IMG/VR virus record: IMGVR_UViG_3300037789_000045
Coordinates: 1 to 35,856 of that record
Length of the DNA: 35,856 bases
Source of the DNA: a virus
Taxonomy: Duplodnaviria > Caudoviricetes
Strand: one strand, 5' to 3'
Every line of letters begins with the position of its first letter. The stretch's first letter is position 1. The notes beneath the pieces were generated by a model, which made no database searches, was not told where the DNA came from, and saw only the letters and a list, made by a program, of their open reading frames with translations. Shown in pieces: positions 1,191-27,585 of the stretch. The translations under genes and the position numbers were made by a program.

Positions 1191-1218
1191 GGGGAACATT
1201 AAGAGGAAGTTTTAAACA

Positions 1219-3247: not shown

Positions 3248-3332
3248 TGACGAAAGGAATGGTGAAAACGAAATGAAGAAAATATACGACGTTGGAGGAA
3301 ATCCACGCTGTTCTTAAAGCTTTGGAGGAAGT

Positions 3333-6441: not shown

Positions 6442-6471
6442 AAAAAGCCCCCGTATGGCAACAGGGGCTTT
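6442..6471 (-). terminator. Intrinsic terminator after major capsid gene
   Basis: AAAGCCCCUGU/ACGGGGGCUUUUU. Confidence 0.8.
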
Positions 6472-7439: not shown

Positions 7440-7522
7440 TTTAAAACCCTTTCCTTTTAAACTAAATTAAAAACCTTTTACTTTAGCTTCCTCTGACAAT
7501 CGGAAAAGGCTGTTTATGGTTT

Positions 7523-15005: not shown

Positions 15006-15397
15006 ATCTTCTTTCCACCTTCTTTAGCGCGGTTTTCAGGCTTATGATCTGCGCGGCTATCATTATAGTTCAGCTTATCAACCACGATCTGCGCAAGGTC
15101 TATACCTAAACCACCCGCTGCATCACAAATGCGAATAAGCGCATCGGCAAGTTCTGTATCAAGCATCTTGTGCTGTGGGAGGTGATCATCATTTAAATCT
15201 TTTCTGTAACCTTCCAAGGCTTCAGAAACTTCAGAATGAATTAAACATAACAATTCAGGAACGGGGCGCGGCTTATATTCGCCTGTTTTGGGGTCATTCC
15301 ACCATCCATTATTATATGCTCTTGCGTGGCAGGCCTTAACAAGTACATCAACACTTGTAATAGTTGCAATATCGCTTGGCACTTCCTTTTTGCCCAT
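15002..15397 (-). CDS. MazG-like nucleotide pyrophosphohydrolase
   Basis: LIHSEVSEALE...ELADALIRI.D. Confidence 0.85.
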   Translation of the reverse strand: MGKKEVPSDIATITSVDVLVKACHARAYNNGWWNDPKTGEYKPRPVPELLCLIHSEVSEALEGYRKDLNDDHLPQHKMLDTELADALIRICDAAGGLGIDLAQIVVDKLNYNDSRADHKPENRAKEGGKKI

Positions 15398-15413
15398 TAT
15401 ATCTTCCTCTTAT

Positions 15414-15530
15414 TTGTGTATTGTTCTATTAAAAATGGGGCCACTCTGCCAGCCGCTATTGATTATTCACGGCTCATCACTCCGTAGAGCGATGTGCTTG
15501 ACCAAAGCAGCCCCTTACACAATGACTCAG
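15414..15530 (-). ncRNA. Candidate structured RNA (three-way junction)
   Basis: 12-bp P1, 8-bp P2 with cUACGg loop, 5-bp P3; G-U pairs work only on the minus strand. Confidence 0.6.
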
Positions 15531-15537
15531 TGAGTCG

Positions 15538-15566
15538 ACTCTATTCACTGTCTTGTGTTGAGTCAA
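15538..15566 (-). promoter_or_regulatory. TTGACTCAA-class promoter
   Basis: TTGACT-N17-TAGAGT within a TGTTGASTCAACA palindrome. Confidence 0.7.
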
Positions 15567-16233: not shown

Positions 16234-16941
16234 TTACGGTTTATTGCCTTCAGTGAACGAGATTATCCAAGCATCGAACGCTTTATACGGGTATTTAGGG
16301 TATTCTTTTGCCTTTTTGTTGATGAAAGTGTTAAATTTTGTAACAAGCTCATGAAAATCCCAGTCGCGGGTTTTTTGCTTTAGGCGTTCTCGCTCATCAT
16401 CCTTCAAGAACATTTCGATGTTGTAGTTGCGTGGACGTGCCTTTTTTCCCCTATCATTTTCAGAATTTAAAAGATCCTCGCGCGTCTGATCTGTTCTGTT
16501 CTGATTCTGACTCTGATCTAGGCCGTTTCCTGTATCACCTTTGGAACGTTCCCTGAAACGTTTCACTCTTTCCGTAGAACTATCTGATTTATATTGTTTT
16601 TTTCCCCAGTTTCTTAAAAAATAGTTATATTCTTTTCTGTCAAAAAGCGTTTCATTTTCGAGTGTTTTTTGTTTCACTGGCGTTTCATTTCGTTTCACTT
16701 CGCGTTTCAAAAACACGCCTTTTTCGTGCAACTCTTCAAACTTATTAACAGTTTCTTCCACAGACATGCGCAAGTAAAAAGCACACTGTTCTATAGGGGG
16801 AAGCTTTCCAGAATTGCCAACATCTTCTAATGCTAATATACACTGACAATTGACCCAAAATTTGAAAAGTTCAGGGGGTAAGTTCTGTATTCTTTTGTTG
16901 TTTATTACATCCGCGTGATAGCGAAACCAAGACATAGCCAT
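16234..16941 (-). CDS. Phage replication initiator/replisome organiser
   Basis: WFRYH...N-terminus; NW.K.Q...SSTERV.RFRER motif; internal repeats. Confidence 0.7.
   Translation of the reverse strand: MAMSWFRYHADVINNKRIQNLPPELFKFWVNCQCILALEDVGNSGKLPPIEQCAFYLRMSVEETVNKFEELHEKGVFLKREVKRNETPVKQKTLENETLFDRKEYNYFLRNWGKKQYKSDSSTERVKRFRERSKGDTGNGLDQSQNQNRTDQTREDLLNSENDRGKKARPRNYNIEMFLKDDERERLKQKTRDWDFHELVTKFNTFINKKAKEYPKYPYKAFDAWIISFTEGNKP
16485..16710. repeat. Iteron-like repeats (candidate origin)
   Basis: GTTTCA at 16649, 16671, 16682, 16692, 16704; palindromes TGAAACGTTTCA and GGAACGTTCC; TCTG repeats. Confidence 0.55.
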
Positions 16942-16970
16942 AATTCAACTTCCTCTTTATGTTCTTATTT

Positions 16971-18606: not shown

Positions 18607-18631
18607 CGTATTTACTCCTTTTGAAAATGTG

Positions 18632-18660
18632 TTGACTCAAGTTTTATAGCGTGCCATAAA
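18632..18660 (+). promoter_or_regulatory. TTGACTCAA-class promoter
   Basis: TTGACT-N17-CATAAA. Confidence 0.65.
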
Positions 18661-18697
18661 GAGAATGTAAATAGAACAAAGGAAGGAAATTTACAAA

Positions 18698-18799
18698 ATG
18701 ATTAGAGATTTTATCGCATTGGTTTTTGTGTTTGGTGTTATTGTGTACGGAATCCCTTTTGCGCATTTAGCCATAACGGGAGAATATCTATCATTCTAA
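18698..18799 (+). CDS. 33-aa hydrophobic membrane peptide
   Basis: AAGGAAGGA RBS; MIRDFIALVFVFGVIVYGIPFAHLAITGEYLSF. Confidence 0.65.
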   Translation: MIRDFIALVFVFGVIVYGIPFAHLAITGEYLSF

Positions 18800-18803
18800 C
18801 AGC

Positions 18804-18832
18804 AAAAGCCCCCGCACAAAGGCAGGGGCTTT
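18804..18832 (-). terminator. Intrinsic terminator, better formed on the minus strand
   Basis: AAAGCCCCUGC/GCGGGGGCUUUU with a U-G pair (C-A mismatch on plus). Confidence 0.7.
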
Positions 18833-18869
18833 AAATCCGATCCATCCAGAGGAAGCTGTATAAATCTGT
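18804..18869 (-). ncRNA. Candidate ~65-nt antisense sRNA
   Basis: Minus-strand TTGCCA-N17-TTTAAT (18904-18876) and minus-strand terminator 18804-18832; no ORF. Confidence 0.5.
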
Positions 18870-18897
18870 ATCAACATTAAAACATAAGGCTAATATC

Positions 18898-19107
18898 ATG
18901 GCAATAAAAAAAGTATTAGAAGCACGTAAGAAAAACGCACAACTAGACCGACTGCAGTCATACAAAACAGATATGCGGAAAGTTCTTGATCGTATGGAGG
19001 TTGAGGGCGATTGTCCCGTTTTGCACGAGCATATGCATTCATTTATTGGAGAGGTTGAATCAGAGATGATTGAAATTCTTGACGGTGGAATTGTCGAAAA
19101 GAAATAA
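18898..19107 (+). CDS. Hypothetical protein
   Basis: 69-aa ORF in early block. Confidence 0.6.
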   Translation: MAIKKVLEARKKNAQLDRLQSYKTDMRKVLDRMEVEGDCPVLHEHMHSFIGEVESEMIEILDGGIVEKK

Positions 19108-19109
19108 CT

Positions 19110-19310
19110 ATGCCTTACGTTATCTTTAAAGAAAAAATGTTAGACCGCATCGCTCATTTATTTATGGACGGTAAGACAGTACCGCAAATAAGAGGCGTTA
19201 TGACGCTTGAATATGGGAGGCCTAACAGAGTCTTTACAGAAAAAAACATTCAAAAGGAATTAGATGATATGGGCTTTAGCGAAGAGGATATTTTAAAAAG
19301 TGAACACTAA
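19110..19310 (+). CDS. Small HTH protein, loosely GcrA DNA-binding-domain-like
   Basis: LFMDGKTVPQI...T...I...L..MG aligns by eye with GcrA LWLDGLSASQI...TRNAV...LG. Confidence 0.45.
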   Translation: MPYVIFKEKMLDRIAHLFMDGKTVPQIRGVMTLEYGRPNRVFTEKNIQKELDDMGFSEEDILKSEH

Positions 19311-19563
19311 GACGACAACAGAATTAATGCGCATTAAAGATCAAGTGCAGAAAAGCAATGATGCCGCTGAAATAAAAGATCTGATGGAAACAGCTGCTTC
19401 ATTCTATGAATTTATTAAATCTTTAAGGTTTCAGACAGAAAACACAGATATATTCACATCTGGTCTTACCAAAGATTTTAAATTAGACCTATTAACTATA
19501 GGCGCTTTAGCTGCTCAAATCGAAGAAGAGGCTAAAGAAAGGTTGACTCAAGTGCCTGAATAA
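19300..19563 (+). CDS. Hypothetical protein
   Basis: GTG start with GAGG RBS. Confidence 0.6.
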   Translation: MNTKTTTELMRIKDQVQKSNDAAEIKDLMETAASFYEFIKSLRFQTENTDIFTSGLTKDFKLDLLTIGALAAQIEEEAKERLTQVPE

Positions 19564-19572: not shown

Positions 19573-19598
19573 AACGATCTAAATAGAAAGAGGAAGCT

Positions 19599-20486
19599 AT
19601 GGATCAAGAAAAGTACGGCCTTTTTAAGGGCATGAATGATATTACATACCACTTTGAGCGCGATGAAATTTCAAACTCAGCGCTAAAAGTTATTCATAAG
19701 AAAACACTTGCACATTATTATTATCAGTTCCTAGACCCTGATCATAAAGCAGAGCGGCTTGCAGAAAAGCTTGCTGTTATGAGCGGTGAGAATACTAAAA
19801 AATCACACTTGCGTTTCGGTGACTGTTTCCACGTCATGTTACTTGAGCCTGATCACTTTAAAGAAAAGGTTGTTCTTTGGAACGGACTCCCCCGCAATAC
19901 AAAAGCAGGCAAGGAAGCCTTTGCCGAAGCCCTTCAGCAGCTTAAGCCTGGCATGAGAACTATGACAGAGCAAGAATATAAGGATGCAAAGCTTATGTGT
20001 TCTTCTGTCATGAGCTTGTCAAAAGCACGCGCCTTTCTTGAAAAGGAAGGTGATGCCGAGCTTAGTTTTTTTTGGCGCGATGAGGTGCATGAAGTTGATT
20101 GTAAAGCTCGCATGGATTTTGTGACACAAGACGGTTTTATTGTCGATGTTAAGACTGCGGCAAATGCTGATCACGAAACCTTTAGGAAGGATGCTTTTAA
20201 TTTTGGGTATTACATGCAAGCCGCTTTTTATATGCGGGCTTATGCCGCTGTGATGGGCAAAGAGGCGCAAGGCTTTTGTTTTGTTGTTGTTGAGAAAGAG
20301 CAGCCCTTTGGCGCTGCTCCTTACTACGCAACAGAAGAGGAAATTATGCTAGGCAATTACCACCTTGATCAAGCTCTTGAAAAATATGCAGAAGCTAAAA
20401 AGCGAGGATCTTGGCCAGCCTATGAAGATAAGTTTGTAGCTTTAGGCTTGCCGCCATGGGGCATGAAAATGTTGGAGGAGGGTTAG
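19599..20486 (+). CDS. recE: RecE/exonuclease VIII-like PD-(D/E)XK nuclease (DUF3799-like)
   Basis: ISNS.LK, FG..FH...LEP, CKARMD, DVKT, Y.MQAAFY. Confidence 0.9.
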   Translation: MDQEKYGLFKGMNDITYHFERDEISNSALKVIHKKTLAHYYYQFLDPDHKAERLAEKLAVMSGENTKKSHLRFGDCFHVMLLEPDHFKEKVVLWNGLPRNTKAGKEAFAEALQQLKPGMRTMTEQEYKDAKLMCSSVMSLSKARAFLEKEGDAELSFFWRDEVHEVDCKARMDFVTQDGFIVDVKTAANADHETFRKDAFNFGYYMQAAFYMRAYAAVMGKEAQGFCFVVVEKEQPFGAAPYYATEEEIMLGNYHLDQALEKYAEAKKRGSWPAYEDKFVALGLPPWGMKMLEEG

Positions 20487-21712: not shown

Positions 21713-21734
21713 GTGGGAACATATGGAGGAAGAC

Positions 21735-22802
21735 ATGAATCAATCAACTGCTTTAAGCCCGCAGCAGCAGGGCTATAATAACATCTCTACAGCCTTACGC
21801 TCAGAAAAGGCTGTCAATAGAATTTCAGCCGCTCTTGGTATCGACTTACAAGATGAGAACGCCAAAGCTGAGGTTGTCCCTTACACGTCCTCGGTTCTCA
21901 TGGAAATTGAACGGAACTTTGGTGATTCAAAGAAAGACCTTTCAACCTGCCAGCCTGAATCTATTGTGCAGTGCGTTGTCGATGCAGCCCGCATGAAGAT
22001 ATTCATTGATAACAGGCAACACGCGCACCTTGTTAAATACGGAAACAAGGCGACATTGCAAATCGGTTACAGGGGTTATGTTCACAAGATTAAGGAGCAT
22101 TTTCCCGATGCTGATTTTTCTTATGGTGCAATCTATGAGGGTGACACTTTTAAGATTAATTCACAAGACGGTTTTGATCATTACACATTAGATAAGGCCG
22201 ATGCATTTGAAGATGATGAAAACAAGCTTAAAGGTATTTTTGTTGCTATTTCTTATACACTTGGCGGGGTTCCAAAGCAAAAGGTAACAACACTTTCAAA
22301 GGCTATGATTACTAAAATAAGAAGCAGCGCAAAGCAGGACTATATATGGAAGTCATGGTTTATTGAAAAGGCTATAGCGGCAGCAATTAAACGCGCTTGC
22401 AAGGTTCATTTTGCTTCTATTAAAGAATTAAAGGCTGTAGCGGATTTTGATAATGAAGCGCACTTCAAGCCCTTCAACAATCAAACACCAACAACAAAGG
22501 CAAGCAACCCGTTTGAGACAATGAATAAAATCGCGCAAGGCGAAGATATTATTGAACAGGAAGCCGAGACACCTGAAGAGAGCGCTAAAGATATTGACCC
22601 TCCAAAGGATTTGTTTGATCAACACGGAAAGATTGATATTAAAAAAGCCATTCAAGATGCTGTTGAGAACATCAATGATCAAGAAAGCTATACCGCATTT
22701 TTATTAGAGTTTGAGGAGGATTTGACAACTCTTAGCGAAGAAGAACAGGCATCTATTAAGATCCGCCTCAAAGAAATACAAGAAGGACTAGGAATAACAT
22801 GA
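21735..22802 (+). CDS. recT: RecT-family single-strand annealing recombinase
   Basis: C.PESI...AHLV.Y...ATLQIGYRG...YEGD.F; start moved to ATG after GGAGG. Confidence 0.9.
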   Translation: MNQSTALSPQQQGYNNISTALRSEKAVNRISAALGIDLQDENAKAEVVPYTSSVLMEIERNFGDSKKDLSTCQPESIVQCVVDAARMKIFIDNRQHAHLVKYGNKATLQIGYRGYVHKIKEHFPDADFSYGAIYEGDTFKINSQDGFDHYTLDKADAFEDDENKLKGIFVAISYTLGGVPKQKVTTLSKAMITKIRSSAKQDYIWKSWFIEKAIAAAIKRACKVHFASIKELKAVADFDNEAHFKPFNNQTPTTKASNPFETMNKIAQGEDIIEQEAETPEESAKDIDPPKDLFDQHGKIDIKKAIQDAVENINDQESYTAFLLEFEEDLTTLSEEEQASIKIRLKEIQEGLGIT

Positions 22803-23023
22803 GCGAAAAGAAGCCACTAACAAAAGTACAAAAAGAAGTTTTTGATTACGTCAAAGGTTTTATCAGGGAAAATGGAATTTCCCCTTGCATGAGAGAGATT
22901 CAGCAAGGCTTAGATTATGAATCTACTTCGCCCGTTCATAAGCACGTCCAGACTCTTTGTAAAAAAGGTTATTTGAAAAAAACGCCTAAAGTTTGGCGCG
23001 GTATAGAAGTTTTAGAGGCGTAG
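22799..23023 (+). CDS. LexA-type winged-HTH DNA-binding domain only (no peptidase)
   Basis: LT..Q..V..Y......G.SP..REI...L...STS.VH.H...L..KGY...RGI. Confidence 0.85.
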   Translation: MSEKKPLTKVQKEVFDYVKGFIRENGISPCMREIQQGLDYESTSPVHKHVQTLCKKGYLKKTPKVWRGIEVLEA

Positions 23024-23031
23024 AATTAGCC

Positions 23032-23307
23032 ATGAAAATACTGATTTTAGCTTTTATATTGGTGCTTCTGCCAACAGCCTCTTATTCAAAAACAAAGGCC
23101 GAGCTACCAGCAAGTTTCTCAACAGCTCCGCAAGCTGTTATTGATTGGTACTTATGCCAAAAAACGGGGGAGCGTTGCATAGCATCGCAAAGCGCTAATA
23201 ATTGCTATATAGAAAGTATTCCTTGTGATGAGATGATAATTGAAAGCGATAATGAAAAAAAGGGCGACTCGCAAGCCACCCTTTTAAAAATCAAAAACAC
23301 CGAATAA
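23032..23307 (+). CDS. Small exported Cys-containing protein
   Basis: MKILILAFILVLLPTASYS signal-like N-terminus; four Cys. Confidence 0.55.
   Translation: MKILILAFILVLLPTASYSKTKAELPASFSTAPQAVIDWYLCQKTGERCIASQSANNCYIESIPCDEMIIESDNEKKGDSQATLLKIKNTE
23255..23285 (-). terminator. Terminator of the late lysis/spike operon
   Basis: GGGUGGCU-UGCG-AGUCGCCC-U7 on the minus strand. Confidence 0.8.
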
Positions 23308-23574: not shown

Positions 23575-26500
23575 CTAATTGCTCCAGGGGGTGTTATCAT
23601 TAGCGTATGTTCTTGCGGCAACCAAATCAGAATCTGAAATAGCTCTATCAATAATAGCCATTCCGTAAAGCCTTGCACCCGTTGCCCCTGTTGTTCCTGT
23701 GTCAGTGGCTAAGATACCAATATTAGAAGTGGCGTTATCTGTATTCGTTCCTATGGCAGTACCACTTGTGAAGCTTGTAGCGTTCATAGAATAGCTCAAG
23801 GCTGTACCACTCTGCTTAATAGCTATTAAGTAATCTGTGCTTGCACTCAACGCGCCCATATTTGTGTTCTTGAATGTACCCGCACCATCAGCAACACGCA
23901 CCTCCATATTGCCAGAAACAGACAAAATACGGAAATCAGGATCACCGCTTGCCGCGCTGTCAACATTCACATAGAACGCTGTTCCGATACTTGACGGCGT
24001 TCTAAGTGCGATAATGTATGTTACGTCTTGGTCTGAGCGTACAAGCCTATTCCATATCGTTGCAGTTGCGGCATCGTTTTTAGAAACCAAGTAATCACCC
24101 GCGTCAGTGGCTTCTATATATCCTGAACTTGTACCGCTTCCCGATATTGTAACATCATCAGAAGACCCGCTGTCGTTACCATTCCAGAAATCAAGGTTAG
24201 TGTCGCCGCTGTATTCCGCAATAGTCTGCGTTGTGTCATTCGCAACTGAATCCGTTAAGTGTACCCACCATTCAACAACACTATCGCCGCTAAACTCAGA
24301 TAGGCCAGCAAGTCCTGTAGCGCCAGCTGAAGCCGCTGCAATAGTTCCTGTAGCTGCACTTTCCGCTGTGGCAGCGCCTTCTGAGTTGGTTGCTGTAACA
24401 TCACAAGTTAGTGTGTCCCCCTCGTCGGTTGCATCGACAAGATAAGTTGAAGATGTAGCACCCGATATATCGACTCCCGTATTTTCCCATTGATATGTGT
24501 ATGTCGGAGTCGGGAATCCTGACCATGTACCAGTTGAGCAGGAAAGTGTCTCTCCAACCTGTTCAGTCCCAGAAATAACAGGAAGCACAGAGTTAACAGG
24601 GGCTGAGTTTTCAGGGTCAATAGTGCCTGTGGCTGCTGTCTCTGCTGTGGCAGAGCCTTCTGCATTTGTACCAGTCACTTCGCACGTAATAGTTTCGCCA
24701 ACATCAGCAGCCGCAAGAAGATATGTATTAGAAGTTGCGCCTGATATGTTCACCCCGCCGCGCTGCCATTGATACGTAATCGATGGTGCCGGGTATCCTG
24801 TCCATGTCCCGTCTGTAACAGAAAGGGTTTCGCCTTGCTGTTCTGTGCCAGATATAACGGGAAGAACAGTATTAACAGGTGCTACATATTCTTGCTCAAT
24901 AATGCCTGTGGCTGCGCTTTCCGCCTCAACAGCCCCCGCAATATTTGTTGCCGTTACAACGCAAGTAATAGTTTCGCCAACATCAGCAACAGCTAATAAA
25001 TATGTGCTGCTTGTTTCACCAGATATATCTACCCCTGACCGTTCCCATCCATAAGCATATGTTGGAGTCGGCGTTCCGCTCCATGTGCCAGTTGAGCAGG
25101 TGAGTGTTTCGCCTTGCCTTTCGGTTCCTGTTATCACAGGAAGAACTGAATTCGAAGGCGCTACCGTGGTAACTGTCTGTTGAATCGCTGTATTTTTTTG
25201 CAAAGGAAGATCATTCGCATCAGCCAAGATATTAGAAAGCGTTGCATTTCTAAATGTTGTGTTCATGGCATTGAGGGTAATAACCTCATTACCTACAAGC
25301 GTATATCCGTTTGTACGCGCTCTAATTCTATCATTAGATTTTTCTAATACAGCATAAGAAGCATTATAAAGTGTTCCATCAACATCAAATGTAAACATGT
25401 CAGTCTCAAGCGATGCAGCGTCTGCTTGAGAAATTGCGTTTCCATCGTCCAAGGTATAATTGACATAGATTTGATTGCTATCAATATCAAAAGTCATTGA
25501 GCTAACAGACGCGCCAACAGTGCCGCCTGTGCTTCGCTTACCTTCAAGAGCAGCGATTCTTTCGCCAACATCTGCCCAGTAGTCCCCCGCCCCATCGTCA
25601 TCTAGGTGAGTATCATCTCTGTATGATTTGTTAACGTAAGAGGGGATAAAGTAAGCCTCATTATCCGCTAGCAGTTCACTTTCAATCTGTCCGTATTCTC
25701 GATAGCCAGTAAATTCAGTTGAGTTTGTATCAGCACCAACAGGGCTGATACCTATCTTGGCATTACTAAAATCTGACTCAAGAATACCAAGGAATGCATT
25801 GTATGAAGTTTTAACCTCAGCCTTTGTAGAGCTTCCTGCATCAATGCCAGCCGCGTCTGTATTACCGATAACAATCGGAATAAAATCAATTTCAGAATTT
25901 ACTAACCCTGCCGCAGTAACATTCGTTGTTATTTGCGCCGTATAATCTGTGGATTTAGCATCGCTTGAATTCAGGTAAGAGCCAGCAGCCCCAGCATTAT
26001 CAGCATTAATAGAGATTCCAGCCTTAGCACCGTCAATAACTGTGAGCTTGCCGTAATATTCAAAGAGTGTTTCTTTTAATGTATCAATTCCGATAGTGGG
26101 ATCAGTCAAATTAACATCATTAAACATGTAATCGGCAACAGACTGACCGAGAACCAATATATTCAAATCAAGATCATCTGAAGCGCCGTATATTGTGCCA
26201 AAATCTGTAGCATCACCGCTAAAGCTTCCAAGGCTTACAATATGCCCTCCAGAAGTCCTATATCGGTCATAAGTAGACCCTGCTGATCGAGAATTTTGAA
26301 TCCAAACAATAGACGGGCTATTATCATTATAGGTTCCTGTTTGAAAATTAGAATCTCCTGAACTTGTGCCGTTACTGTTGTGAGCATAAATATCATAATT
26401 CCAAGACTTAGCCCCTAGAACATCGACCATATTCGGGCCATAGTTTGCGGTATATTCGCTGCCTACTCGAATACCTACAGCCTCATCATGTGCCGTACTT

Positions 26501-27585
26501 CCATTGTCGTTATTGTCCTGTGCATCCCATCCGTTGCGTGCCGCAAAGGTGCGTTCTTCGAAAAACTTAAGAACAGTGTTATGCGAGTTATCAATGGAAT
26601 AGCCAAAGCCATCGCTGTTATTGTCTGTTGAGCTACATTCCACGCAATAGGAATATGCAGCATCTCTAATGTCTAGTCCTGCCGTTGTGTCTGCGTATCT
26701 AAATGCGGATTTATAACCTACAAAAGTGCCGTCATTTGTACCAGAATAACTAAGTTTTACAGGTCTTCGCCCCCAAAACTCTATACCTTCCGCATAAAGG
26801 GTAATGTCGTTTGTTACATCAACATTATCAACAGCGAGCATGACATAAACATCTTCATCAGGCTCGCGTGAATCGTGTGTGTGAATGTATAAGGTTCCGC
26901 CTGTCTCATACCAAGATCCAGCATTGGCTTGTACATTTGCAATACTGCTTTCTTTATCGTAAGGAATCGGAACTTCTGTTGTCCCGTCTGTCAGATATTC
27001 GCCGCTGCGCGTGTGTGTACGATCAACAATGTTTGTAACATTGTTTCTTGTAGTGGAATAAACATTATCATTCGGAGAGCTTTGCTGAGTCCACGTGAAA
27101 TAATCCCCCAGCCTCCCCCTAAATATAATAACAGTTCCAGCCCCATCGGCGGCAACTAATGCCGTGTCTACCGTGGGATTATACCCATCAAATCCACTAA
27201 ACACTCCGTTGCCGTCATGATAAACACCGCTAACTAAATTAATTACAGCAGGGTTGTCTGCCTCAGCCGTTGGAATATCTGCATAGGCTTGCGCTCGGCT
27301 TGATCCATCGTTGGAATTATCGCCGTTAACTAAATCAACCCATCTTTCAGTCCCAGAGGGCTTTAATGTTGTGTGATCAAAGGAGGTTGTAGAATTACTA
27401 TATACGGTAATCCCTGAATCCCAGTATTCAGTGAATAAAGTAGGTTCTTCTACCTCAGCGCTGAATATACCGACATTGCTTGCTACTGAAGGGCTTACAG
27501 CATTACCAATAAGTTGAGCATCAGCCTGTAAAGCTGATGCCGCAAATATTAGTAATGATAATAAAAATGTCTTTATCGACCGCAT
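23575..27585 (-). CDS. Signal-peptide-bearing putative head fibre/depolymerase: beta-helix, SGNH esterase, 3 Ig-like repeats, LamG-like C-terminus
   Basis: MRSIKTFLLSLLIFAASALQADA|Q; DGF.Y/NGST.H beta-helix motifs; GQS, GNTD, DDTH SGNH blocks. Confidence 0.8.
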   Translation of the reverse strand: MRSIKTFLLSLLIFAASALQADAQLIGNAVSPSVASNVGIFSAEVEEPTLFTEYWDSGITVYSNSTTSFDHTTLKPSGTERWVDLVNGDNSNDGSSRAQAYADIPTAEADNPAVINLVSGVYHDGNGVFSGFDGYNPTVDTALVAADGAGTVIIFRGRLGDYFTWTQQSSPNDNVYSTTRNNVTNIVDRTHTRSGEYLTDGTTEVPIPYDKESSIANVQANAGSWYETGGTLYIHTHDSREPDEDVYVMLAVDNVDVTNDITLYAEGIEFWGRRPVKLSYSGTNDGTFVGYKSAFRYADTTAGLDIRDAAYSYCVECSSTDNNSDGFGYSIDNSHNTVLKFFEERTFAARNGWDAQDNNDNGSTAHDEAVGIRVGSEYTANYGPNMVDVLGAKSWNYDIYAHNSNGTSSGDSNFQTGTYNDNSPSIVWIQNSRSAGSTYDRYRTSGGHIVSLGSFSGDATDFGTIYGASDDLDLNILVLGQSVADYMFNDVNLTDPTIGIDTLKETLFEYYGKLTVIDGAKAGISINADNAGAAGSYLNSSDAKSTDYTAQITTNVTAAGLVNSEIDFIPIVIGNTDAAGIDAGSSTKAEVKTSYNAFLGILESDFSNAKIGISPVGADTNSTEFTGYREYGQIESELLADNEAYFIPSYVNKSYRDDTHLDDDGAGDYWADVGERIAALEGKRSTGGTVGASVSSMTFDIDSNQIYVNYTLDDGNAISQADAASLETDMFTFDVDGTLYNASYAVLEKSNDRIRARTNGYTLVGNEVITLNAMNTTFRNATLSNILADANDLPLQKNTAIQQTVTTVAPSNSVLPVITGTERQGETLTCSTGTWSGTPTPTYAYGWERSGVDISGETSSTYLLAVADVGETITCVVTATNIAGAVEAESAATGIIEQEYVAPVNTVLPVISGTEQQGETLSVTDGTWTGYPAPSITYQWQRGGVNISGATSNTYLLAAADVGETITCEVTGTNAEGSATAETAATGTIDPENSAPVNSVLPVISGTEQVGETLSCSTGTWSGFPTPTYTYQWENTGVDISGATSSTYLVDATDEGDTLTCDVTATNSEGAATAESAATGTIAAASAGATGLAGLSEFSGDSVVEWWVHLTDSVANDTTQTIAEYSGDTNLDFWNGNDSGSSDDVTISGSGTSSGYIEATDAGDYLVSKNDAATATIWNRLVRSDQDVTYIIALRTPSSIGTAFYVNVDSAASGDPDFRILSVSGNMEVRVADGAGTFKNTNMGALSASTDYLIAIKQSGTALSYSMNATSFTSGTAIGTNTDNATSNIGILATDTGTTGATGARLYGMAIIDRAISDSDLVAARTYANDNTPWSN
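24325..25161 (-). repeat. Three tandem 279-bp (93-aa) Ig-like repeats
   Basis: AP.N.VLPVI.GT...GETL...GTW.G.P.P...Y.W starts at 25161, 24882, 24603. Confidence 0.92.

Follow-up and report, generated by a model that had tools for sequence, protein, structure and literature searches.

The c4 RNA of phages P1 and P7 is 77 nt long, is produced by processing, and pairs in two parts, a′ and b′. It sits in an immI region, ahead of icd-ant. A role in controlling ant is ascribed to it in PMC8201110. Like c4, the candidate RNA reported below is a short phage RNA that would pair, through more than one block, with separate and partly complementary sites in the phage's own mRNAs. Whereas c4 acts on a single antirepressor operon and maintains lysogeny, the sites found here are spread over several early operons and also include the capsid leader. 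In further distinction from c4, the candidate would have a promoter and a terminator of its own, a search of the whole window with the 4227 families of Rfam release 15 (with C4, sar, OOP, and cuckoo/alpha-r14 among them where the release has these) gave no match at E ≤ 1, and no antirepressor family was recognised among 59 ORFs.

Each of the RNAs P22 sar, lambda OOP and aQ is encoded in cis and is antisense to a single target, and most of the phage antisense RNAs covered in the consulted part of a review (PMC12197685) act on one phage target or on host genes. The candidate is like sar, OOP and aQ, within what that part reports of them, in being a small RNA with its own promoter that would be directed against an early operon and would block translation or destabilise phage mRNA. 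Unlike theirs, the stretch that it overlaps in cis contains no ribosome-binding site (RBS), and its best sites are unlinked.

A third comparison is provided by the start-associated sequences (SAS/ESAS) of cluster K mycobacteriophages. According to the sections of the source used here, these are asymmetric, RBS-like tags that precede non-structural genes and in many cases have an inverted repeat upstream of them; four cluster K phages have one SAS copy in the opposite orientation and away from any gene start, and the authors left it open whether an RNA or a protein binds (PMC3203893). As described in those sections, SAS is 13 bp long and present in 11–19 copies, while the tag found here has 7–10 nt and six start-linked copies, and it does not belong to SAS. 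Sequence and host are unrelated as well, the odd copy lies here between a promoter-like site and a terminator, and the resemblance is one of possible working only.

Among bacterial small RNAs, DsrA and RprA acting on rpoS, and RNAIII of S. aureus, combine two actions: occlusion of an RBS represses, and opening of an inhibitory hairpin activates. The predicted opening of the capsid leader by an anti-antisense mechanism, and the pairing of a C/U-rich loop with a Shine–Dalgarno (SD)-like sequence, are reminiscent of these RNAs, although the candidate is encoded by a phage, would act on phage targets, and has no sequence relation to them. In the open-access literature, searched at the level of listings and apart from the supplementary table of 38 uncharacterised phage sRNAs in PMC12197685, no phage RNA was found that combines repression of a set of tagged early genes with activation of the capsid gene.

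Our preferred reading, to which we assign a probability of roughly 40%, is that a trans-acting small RNA would damp early recombination and replication genes and free capsid translation, and would in this way act as an early-to-late switch.

Genome Organisation and Early Promoters

The window (the whole stretch of DNA that was analysed, 35,856 nt; IMG/VR record IMGVR_UViG_3300037789_000045) is a complete phage genome of 35.7 kb with a terminal repeat of 127 nt; the public runs listed with the phage are five pond DNA runs, with no RNA run among them. A gapR gene suggests an alphaproteobacterial host. Virion genes are located on the minus strand. The plus strand between 18698 and 23307 encodes recE, recT, a LexA-type DNA-binding protein, and small ORFs, and leftward from 18606 follow gapR, two methyltransferase genes, and a putative initiator gene. 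The latter, at 16941 and called rep below, is presumed from its position to encode the replication initiator; it has no family match. The LexA-type protein (74 aa, 22799–23023, encoded after recT) has a DNA-binding domain without a peptidase domain. It is a candidate Cro-like regulator, and a comparison locus, L083, has a similar gene after gapR. A tyrosine integrase was looked for in the genome and not found, and neither a recombinase nor a partition gene was recognised among the 59 ORFs scanned.

Seven TTGA(C/G)TCAA palindromes occur at promoter-like positions (1161, 13446, 15558, 16991, 18632, 19543, and 21684). The palindrome, which lies at the −35 position of all seven putative promoters, includes the sequence at which CcrM methylates, GANTC, and one of its strands matches the GcrA motif YGAKTCK, as given in PMC4647560, at six of seven positions. 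The seven promoters may be methylation- or GcrA-dependent; alternatively, the LexA-type protein may use the palindrome as its operator. Genome-wide, GANTC is not enriched (111 copies vs 130 expected). One palindrome is placed between two promoters in the divergent control region 18607–18697, where TTTACA-N17-TATAAA faces leftward to gapR and TTGACT-N17-CATAAA rightward to a 33-aa ORF.

Two other parts of the genome are mentioned in passing. The 143-nt intergenic stretch 15398–15540, which separates the mazG-like gene from the 15558 palindrome (itself located within the end of terS), contains several hairpins and is possibly a structured leader; in pond run X3, one contig has a joint that skips 265 nt (15282–15548) across this leader and has only 26 nt on its short side, and it may represent a deletion variant or an artefact. 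At 23575–27585, a tail-region protein of 1336 aa is encoded; its N-terminal part is hydrolase-like, and it contains three Ig-like repeats of 93 aa each (279-nt period).

Table 1. Positions of the predicted RNA, its signals, and its putative target sites in the window.
Feature	Position	Strand	Remarks
−35-like hexamer TTGCCA	18904–18899	−	5/6 matches; runs over codons 1–3 of ORF 18898 (opposite strand)
−10-like hexamer TTTAAT	18881–18876	−	5/6 matches; TG at extended −10; no −11A
Predicted small RNA	18800–18869	−	about 66–72 nt; predicted ends
Predicted 5′ hairpin	18839–18866	−	−7.1 kcal/mol; CUUCCU (18855–18850) in loop
Seed AGCUUCCUCUG	18857–18847	−	complement of the early-gene RBS tag
Terminator-like hairpin	18800–18832 (stem 18805–18832)	−	4-U tail on minus strand, 3-U tail on plus strand
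33-aa hydrophobic ORF	18698–18799	+	ends 5 nt before the hairpin stem
TATAAA	18859–18864	+	possible sense-strand −10 for ORF 18898, if the tag acts in cis
Major capsid leader	7440–7522	−	10-bp helix (7511–7502 with 7454–7445) covers the RBS; predicted activation
RNA site in capsid leader	7505–7485	−	in an open bulge, overlapping the 5′ arm
recE (exonuclease VIII) start region	19575–19605	+	strongest predicted trans target; predicted repression
Tagged RBS of rep (putative replication initiator, 16941)	16945–16957	−	seed match only
Tagged RBS of recT	21725–21732	+	seed match only
Tagged RBS of ORF 1219	1202–1211	+	seed match only
Tagged RBS of mazG-like gene 15397	15403–15410	−	weak; mazG label is ours, PHROG match is to pyrophosphatase
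Tagged RBS of imm	3324–3331	+	weak, about −6 kcal/mol

A Promoter-Like Site and a Terminator-Like Hairpin on the Minus Strand

The TTGCCA-N17-TTTAAT element to which the initial annotation had drawn attention is present on the minus strand, 43 nt upstream of the hairpin. It is one of nine sites in the genome with at least 10 of 12 matches and the sole one of the nine with TG. A stock promoter scan omitted it because its −10 has no A at position 2. The lack of −11A speaks against our preferred reading: in every species that PMC8407463 analysed, TA at −12/−11 was overrepresented in the −10 motifs. Two of the palindrome promoters also score 10/12 without −11A. The −35 hexamer is the reverse complement of the beginning of ORF 18898, namely the T–G of its ATG plus the four coding bases that follow, and, also against our preferred reading, it may be a by-product of this gene start. 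No CtrA-like TTAA-N7-TTAA was found near the locus, and a 44-aa ORF on the minus strand (18831–18965) has no family match and no visible RBS.

As also claimed at the outset, the hairpin folds better on the minus strand (−19.5 kcal/mol vs −16.6 kcal/mol on the plus strand; 36- and 41-nt windows). It has its stem in common with the post-capsid terminator at 6443–6471, in the same orientation, and its direction is therefore probably mainly minus, though the flanking genes are all on the plus strand; the late operon has its own hairpin near 23250–23290. Since the hairpin directly follows the conserved 33-aa ORF, its use as a two-way terminator is plausible. A 10/12 match with TG and without −11A, and a hairpin with a z-score of about −4 and a 4-U tail, would be the possible promoter and intrinsic terminator of the candidate RNA. 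In contigs of other pond runs, the letters of the locus are identical in X3 and X2 (the latter may be the source sample) and those of the capsid leader in X3, X4, and X5; no variants were found over either in the pond-run contigs.

The 33-aa ORF is kept elsewhere, at 58% and 39% identity, and has no family match. In the window and in the comparison locus L081 (9995–10102), a hydrophobic peptide of 33–35 aa is the first product after a divergent promoter, next to different head modules. A type I toxin–antitoxin system of the Fst/par or txpA kind, with the 33-aa peptide as the toxin, was considered and rejected: the RNA is predicted to bind at the 18698 start with no more than −2.0 to −3.5 kcal/mol, and in L081, the peptide homolog is directly followed by another gene, without a terminator between them.

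The Predicted RNA and Its cis Overlap

The RNA likely encoded here, of about 70 nt, would consist of a 5′ hairpin with CUUCCU in the loop, followed by the terminator. The 5′ hairpin is no more stable than expected from shuffled sequences (119 of 1000 shuffles were as stable). The seed is predicted to be exposed in the loop, with an unpaired probability of about 0.8–0.9, and would pair with GAGGAAG. An accessible seed complementary to unlinked mRNA start regions is predicted in this way: it lies in a loop, has exact 10- and 11-nt matches, and would take part in 24-bp duplexes with recE and the capsid leader.

The RNA would also be fully antisense to positions 18833–18869 of a read-through transcript from the 18632 promoter. 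One alternative is a minus-strand RNA that acts in cis only, in the manner of P22 sar or lambda OOP, by pairing or colliding with the rightward transcript that runs from the 33-aa gene through 18898–19563. The complementarity is perfect (−55.7 kcal/mol), two possible −10 sites face each other, and genes 18898–19563 have no palindrome promoter and may need read-through of the weak plus-strand terminator. We nevertheless consider a cis-only action very unlikely. The 5′ end of the predicted RNA lies about 29 nt ahead of the 18898 start codon, and the RNA extends in the direction away from that codon; the antisense stretch leaves the 18898 RBS uncovered (a change in opening of 0.0 kcal/mol), and the tag, the recE match, and the capsid match would go unexplained.

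GAGGAAG as a Tag of Early Gene Starts

GAGGAAG occurs ten times in the genome (Markov expectation 3.3–5.0). Six copies are at gene starts (1203, 3325, 15403, 16949, 19590, and 21726), two are inside genes (18501 and 29778), and two are intergenic and not part of an RBS, at 18849 and, in the capsid leader, at 7487. The initial annotation had described the motif as the RBS of the first genes after five palindrome promoters and of imm, and had listed a 10-nt match at 19589 and an 11-nt match at 7485–7495; the copies are found at all six starts, and both matches are exact. Among first genes behind TTGACTCAA palindromes, five of eight have the tag, compared to one of 52 other genes. Any 7-mer common to at least five of eight genes was obtained in 1 of 20,000 random gene sets, and in 353 of 20,000 when the sets were sampled from 21 independent starts only. 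Elsewhere, in seven comparison genomes (some represented by a large part), the commonest 7-mers at gene starts are other words, mostly ordinary SD sequences. The accompanying statement that the late-gene RBSs inspected mostly use AAAGGA needs qualification: this motif is found at 6 of 13 other independent starts, but also at two of the eight palindrome-first genes.

Two simple explanations of the tag were rejected. It is not simply a stronger SD sequence, as tagged starts range from −6.9 to −9.3 and AAAGGA starts from −6.0 to −9.8 with the 16S tail as we presume it to be. Nor is it a CsrA/RsmA site, for which we take ANGGA to be the motif. In three tagged leaders (1194–1209, 16949–16964, and 21717–21732), GAACAT is positioned exactly 3 nt before GAGGAAG and near the predicted start site; at the candidate locus, CAT is found in this register.

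The tag could also work on the sense strand. GAGGAAG would then be a protein-bound, start-associated sequence or part of a promoter–leader cassette, the 18849 copy would be a cis site in the leader of ORF 18898 and the 7487 copy one in the capsid leader, and the hairpin would be an ordinary terminator working in both directions, at which transcription of the 33-aa gene ends and by which the divergent promoters (18607–18697) are shielded. Several observations agree with this: both extra copies are on the sense strand, 40–45 nt before a start codon; the hairpin begins 5 nt past the stop codon of the conserved 33-aa ORF; GAACAT is in register in three tagged leaders; and ORF 18898, for which there is no palindrome promoter, could be driven from the TATAAA at 18859. 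This TATAAA, however, has no matching −35 and is one of 38 copies, the plus-strand copy of the tag has no stable fold, the hairpin is better on the minus strand, and pairing that extends past the tag for recE and the capsid leader is left without explanation. As CCGAT-N16-19-TAWA has eight matches, of which only these two are intergenic, there is no wider promoter class. Altogether, we judge a sense-strand role of the tag to be somewhat unlikely, but a strong rival to the preferred reading.

A decayed RBS next to a terminator, with a promoter match produced by an AT-rich leader and a Met–Ala gene start, would make the arrangement a relic or the result of chance. The absence of −11A from the −10, the presence of the same start heptamer in 3 of about 60 genes, the mediocre binding ranks (see below), the SD-like nature of the tag, and an in-frame CTG directly after it point in this direction. 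Yet only about 0.12–0.19 extra intergenic copies are expected and two are found, with 11 nt and a second block in common, and the CTG is too close to the tag to be a start codon. An N-terminal extension of ORF 18898 is likewise unsupported, as its database form has 69 aa and neither of the two candidate homologs scored is longer. We regard chance or decay as quite improbable.

Predicted Effects on Early Genes and on the Capsid Gene

In a scan of 5948 windows, the best duplexes of the RNA, after its cis copy and one match on a non-mRNA strand, were with the capsid leader and the recE start. With recE, the 37-nt body of the RNA is predicted to form 24 bp in three helices over the RBS and the AUG (−29.5), and with the capsid leader also 24 bp (−30.6); pairing past the seed is favoured only for these two. 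Accessibility-corrected binding to 59 trans leaders decreased in the order recE, 21306 (a gene without the tag), capsid, rep, 1219, mazG, and recT, while imm was weak. When the 7-nt seed was kept and its flanks were shuffled (n = 452), as good binding was reached by 3 shuffles for recE and 12 for the capsid leader; rep (89), recT (181), the 1219 gene (196), and mazG (399) were no better than chance. In a second shuffle run, recE and the capsid leader were matched simultaneously by 1 of 578 sequences. An asymmetry of G·U pairs between strands was dropped as evidence, since control sites inside genes show the same.

Cofolding with 60 genes closed the RBS most for recE (+12.2 kcal/mol), rep (+10.2 kcal/mol), and recT (+7.5 kcal/mol), and the eight most closed genes were all outside the virion genes. 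The initial annotation had proposed that one RNA could silence replication and recombination genes together. A block of recE, rep, and recT is indeed predicted, but the list of targets was too wide: recE does better than shuffled sequences, rep, recT, 1219, and mazG do not, and imm binds at about −6 kcal/mol.

The capsid leader is predicted to be activated rather than silenced. It is about 50 nt longer than in L002, the nearest structural relative (81% in the capsid). The helix over its RBS has pair probabilities of 0.64–1.0 and is stable across five context lengths, and 75 of 500 leader shuffles match this occlusion. Upon cofolding with the RNA, the cost of opening the capsid RBS falls from 8.1 to 4.3 kcal/mol, and the capsid gene is the most opened of the 60 genes (−3.9 kcal/mol); 108 of 578 seed-keeping RNA shuffles open it as much. 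The L002 capsid leader has no site for the RNA and an open RBS (1.1 vs 8.1 kcal/mol here). The capsid helix could also be melted by ribosomes that terminate on the upstream gene, some 12 nt ahead of the arm. As a DNA repeat, the match between the locus and the capsid leader scores 22 against a background of 21. The effects on the capsid gene and recE hold at 15–37 °C and for five different 5′ ends.

Joint closing of rep, recE, and recT, together with the presence of imm, would also suit an RNA that takes the place of CI as a repressor and maintains the phage as a prophage or in a carrier state, as was originally envisaged. The premise of that proposal is absent: no integrase, recombinase, or partition gene was recognised in the 59 ORFs, the 74-aa LexA-type protein is present, and the capsid gene is predicted to be opened rather than closed. 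We find a role as a CI substitute extremely improbable.

How Unusual the Locus Is

The locus stands out by the conjunction of a promoter, a terminator, and a complement of the tag, while its binding strength alone is unremarkable. In accessibility-corrected binding, it ranked 25, 26, 36, and 40 among 173 intergenic windows by four measures, and several of the top-ranked windows are simply antisense to RBS regions. When raw duplex energy was used, with a shortened capsid site, the locus was not among the best 25 of 329. The choice of targets was made with the matches already in view. A crude blind pipeline flagged the locus, one of three non-coding terminators in the window, and none of 35 in 81 other loci, a comparison from which loci shorter than 9 kb were left out and in which a score was possible for only 15 terminators, from 13 loci that are partly redundant.

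Relatives

No homologous locus was found in scans of viral, metagenome, and genome sequences or in GenBank phages. Searches of viral and metagenome contigs with ORF 18898, recE, and a recE alignment, and of GTDB genomes with recT and capsid alignments, gave no loci. Homologs of recE are known at 64–74% identity. Single genes, and not the candidate region, are held in common with 26 recT loci and 20 gapR loci, and the 51 single matches of a search for the cassette pattern look like chance. The available part of L002 (21 kb) contains neither the palindromes nor the tag. Its terminase large subunit (L002:3484–5994) has 836 aa, compared to 470 aa here, and the insertion looks like an intein by its motifs. 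L081, from the same metagenome, was considered as the missing half of L002 and rejected because of its different head module.

The sole DNA match, a weak one (E 0.004; one of four records), was with L083. It covers 18857–18913 and ends before the seed. In L083, the matching DNA is the leader of an unrelated gene, read on the sense strand of that gene, and contains a perfect extended −10 in this orientation. This favours the sense-strand role of the tag.

Discussion

The features that can be read directly from the DNA are the order and strand of the promoter-like and terminator-like elements, the exact 10- and 11-nt complements, and a tag specific to one class of genes. On the preferred reading of a trans-acting small RNA, pairing would cover the RBSs of early genes, most strongly that of recE, then those of rep and recT, and the RNA would unfold the hairpin predicted over the capsid RBS. 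The RNA would have to be transcribed, presumably after the early burst, and to act on translation, perhaps with a need for Hfq. In the most far-reaching form, one small RNA would run the whole early-to-late transition post-transcriptionally, the same loop shutting recE, rep, and recT and switching the capsid gene on; the lineage would then have gained the inhibitory capsid leader together with the tag. This full dual switch appears clearly unlikely.

If the preferred reading is true, the phage would possess a protein-free early-to-late switch, and the question raised for SAS in 2011, whether an RNA reads such tags, would have a testable answer.
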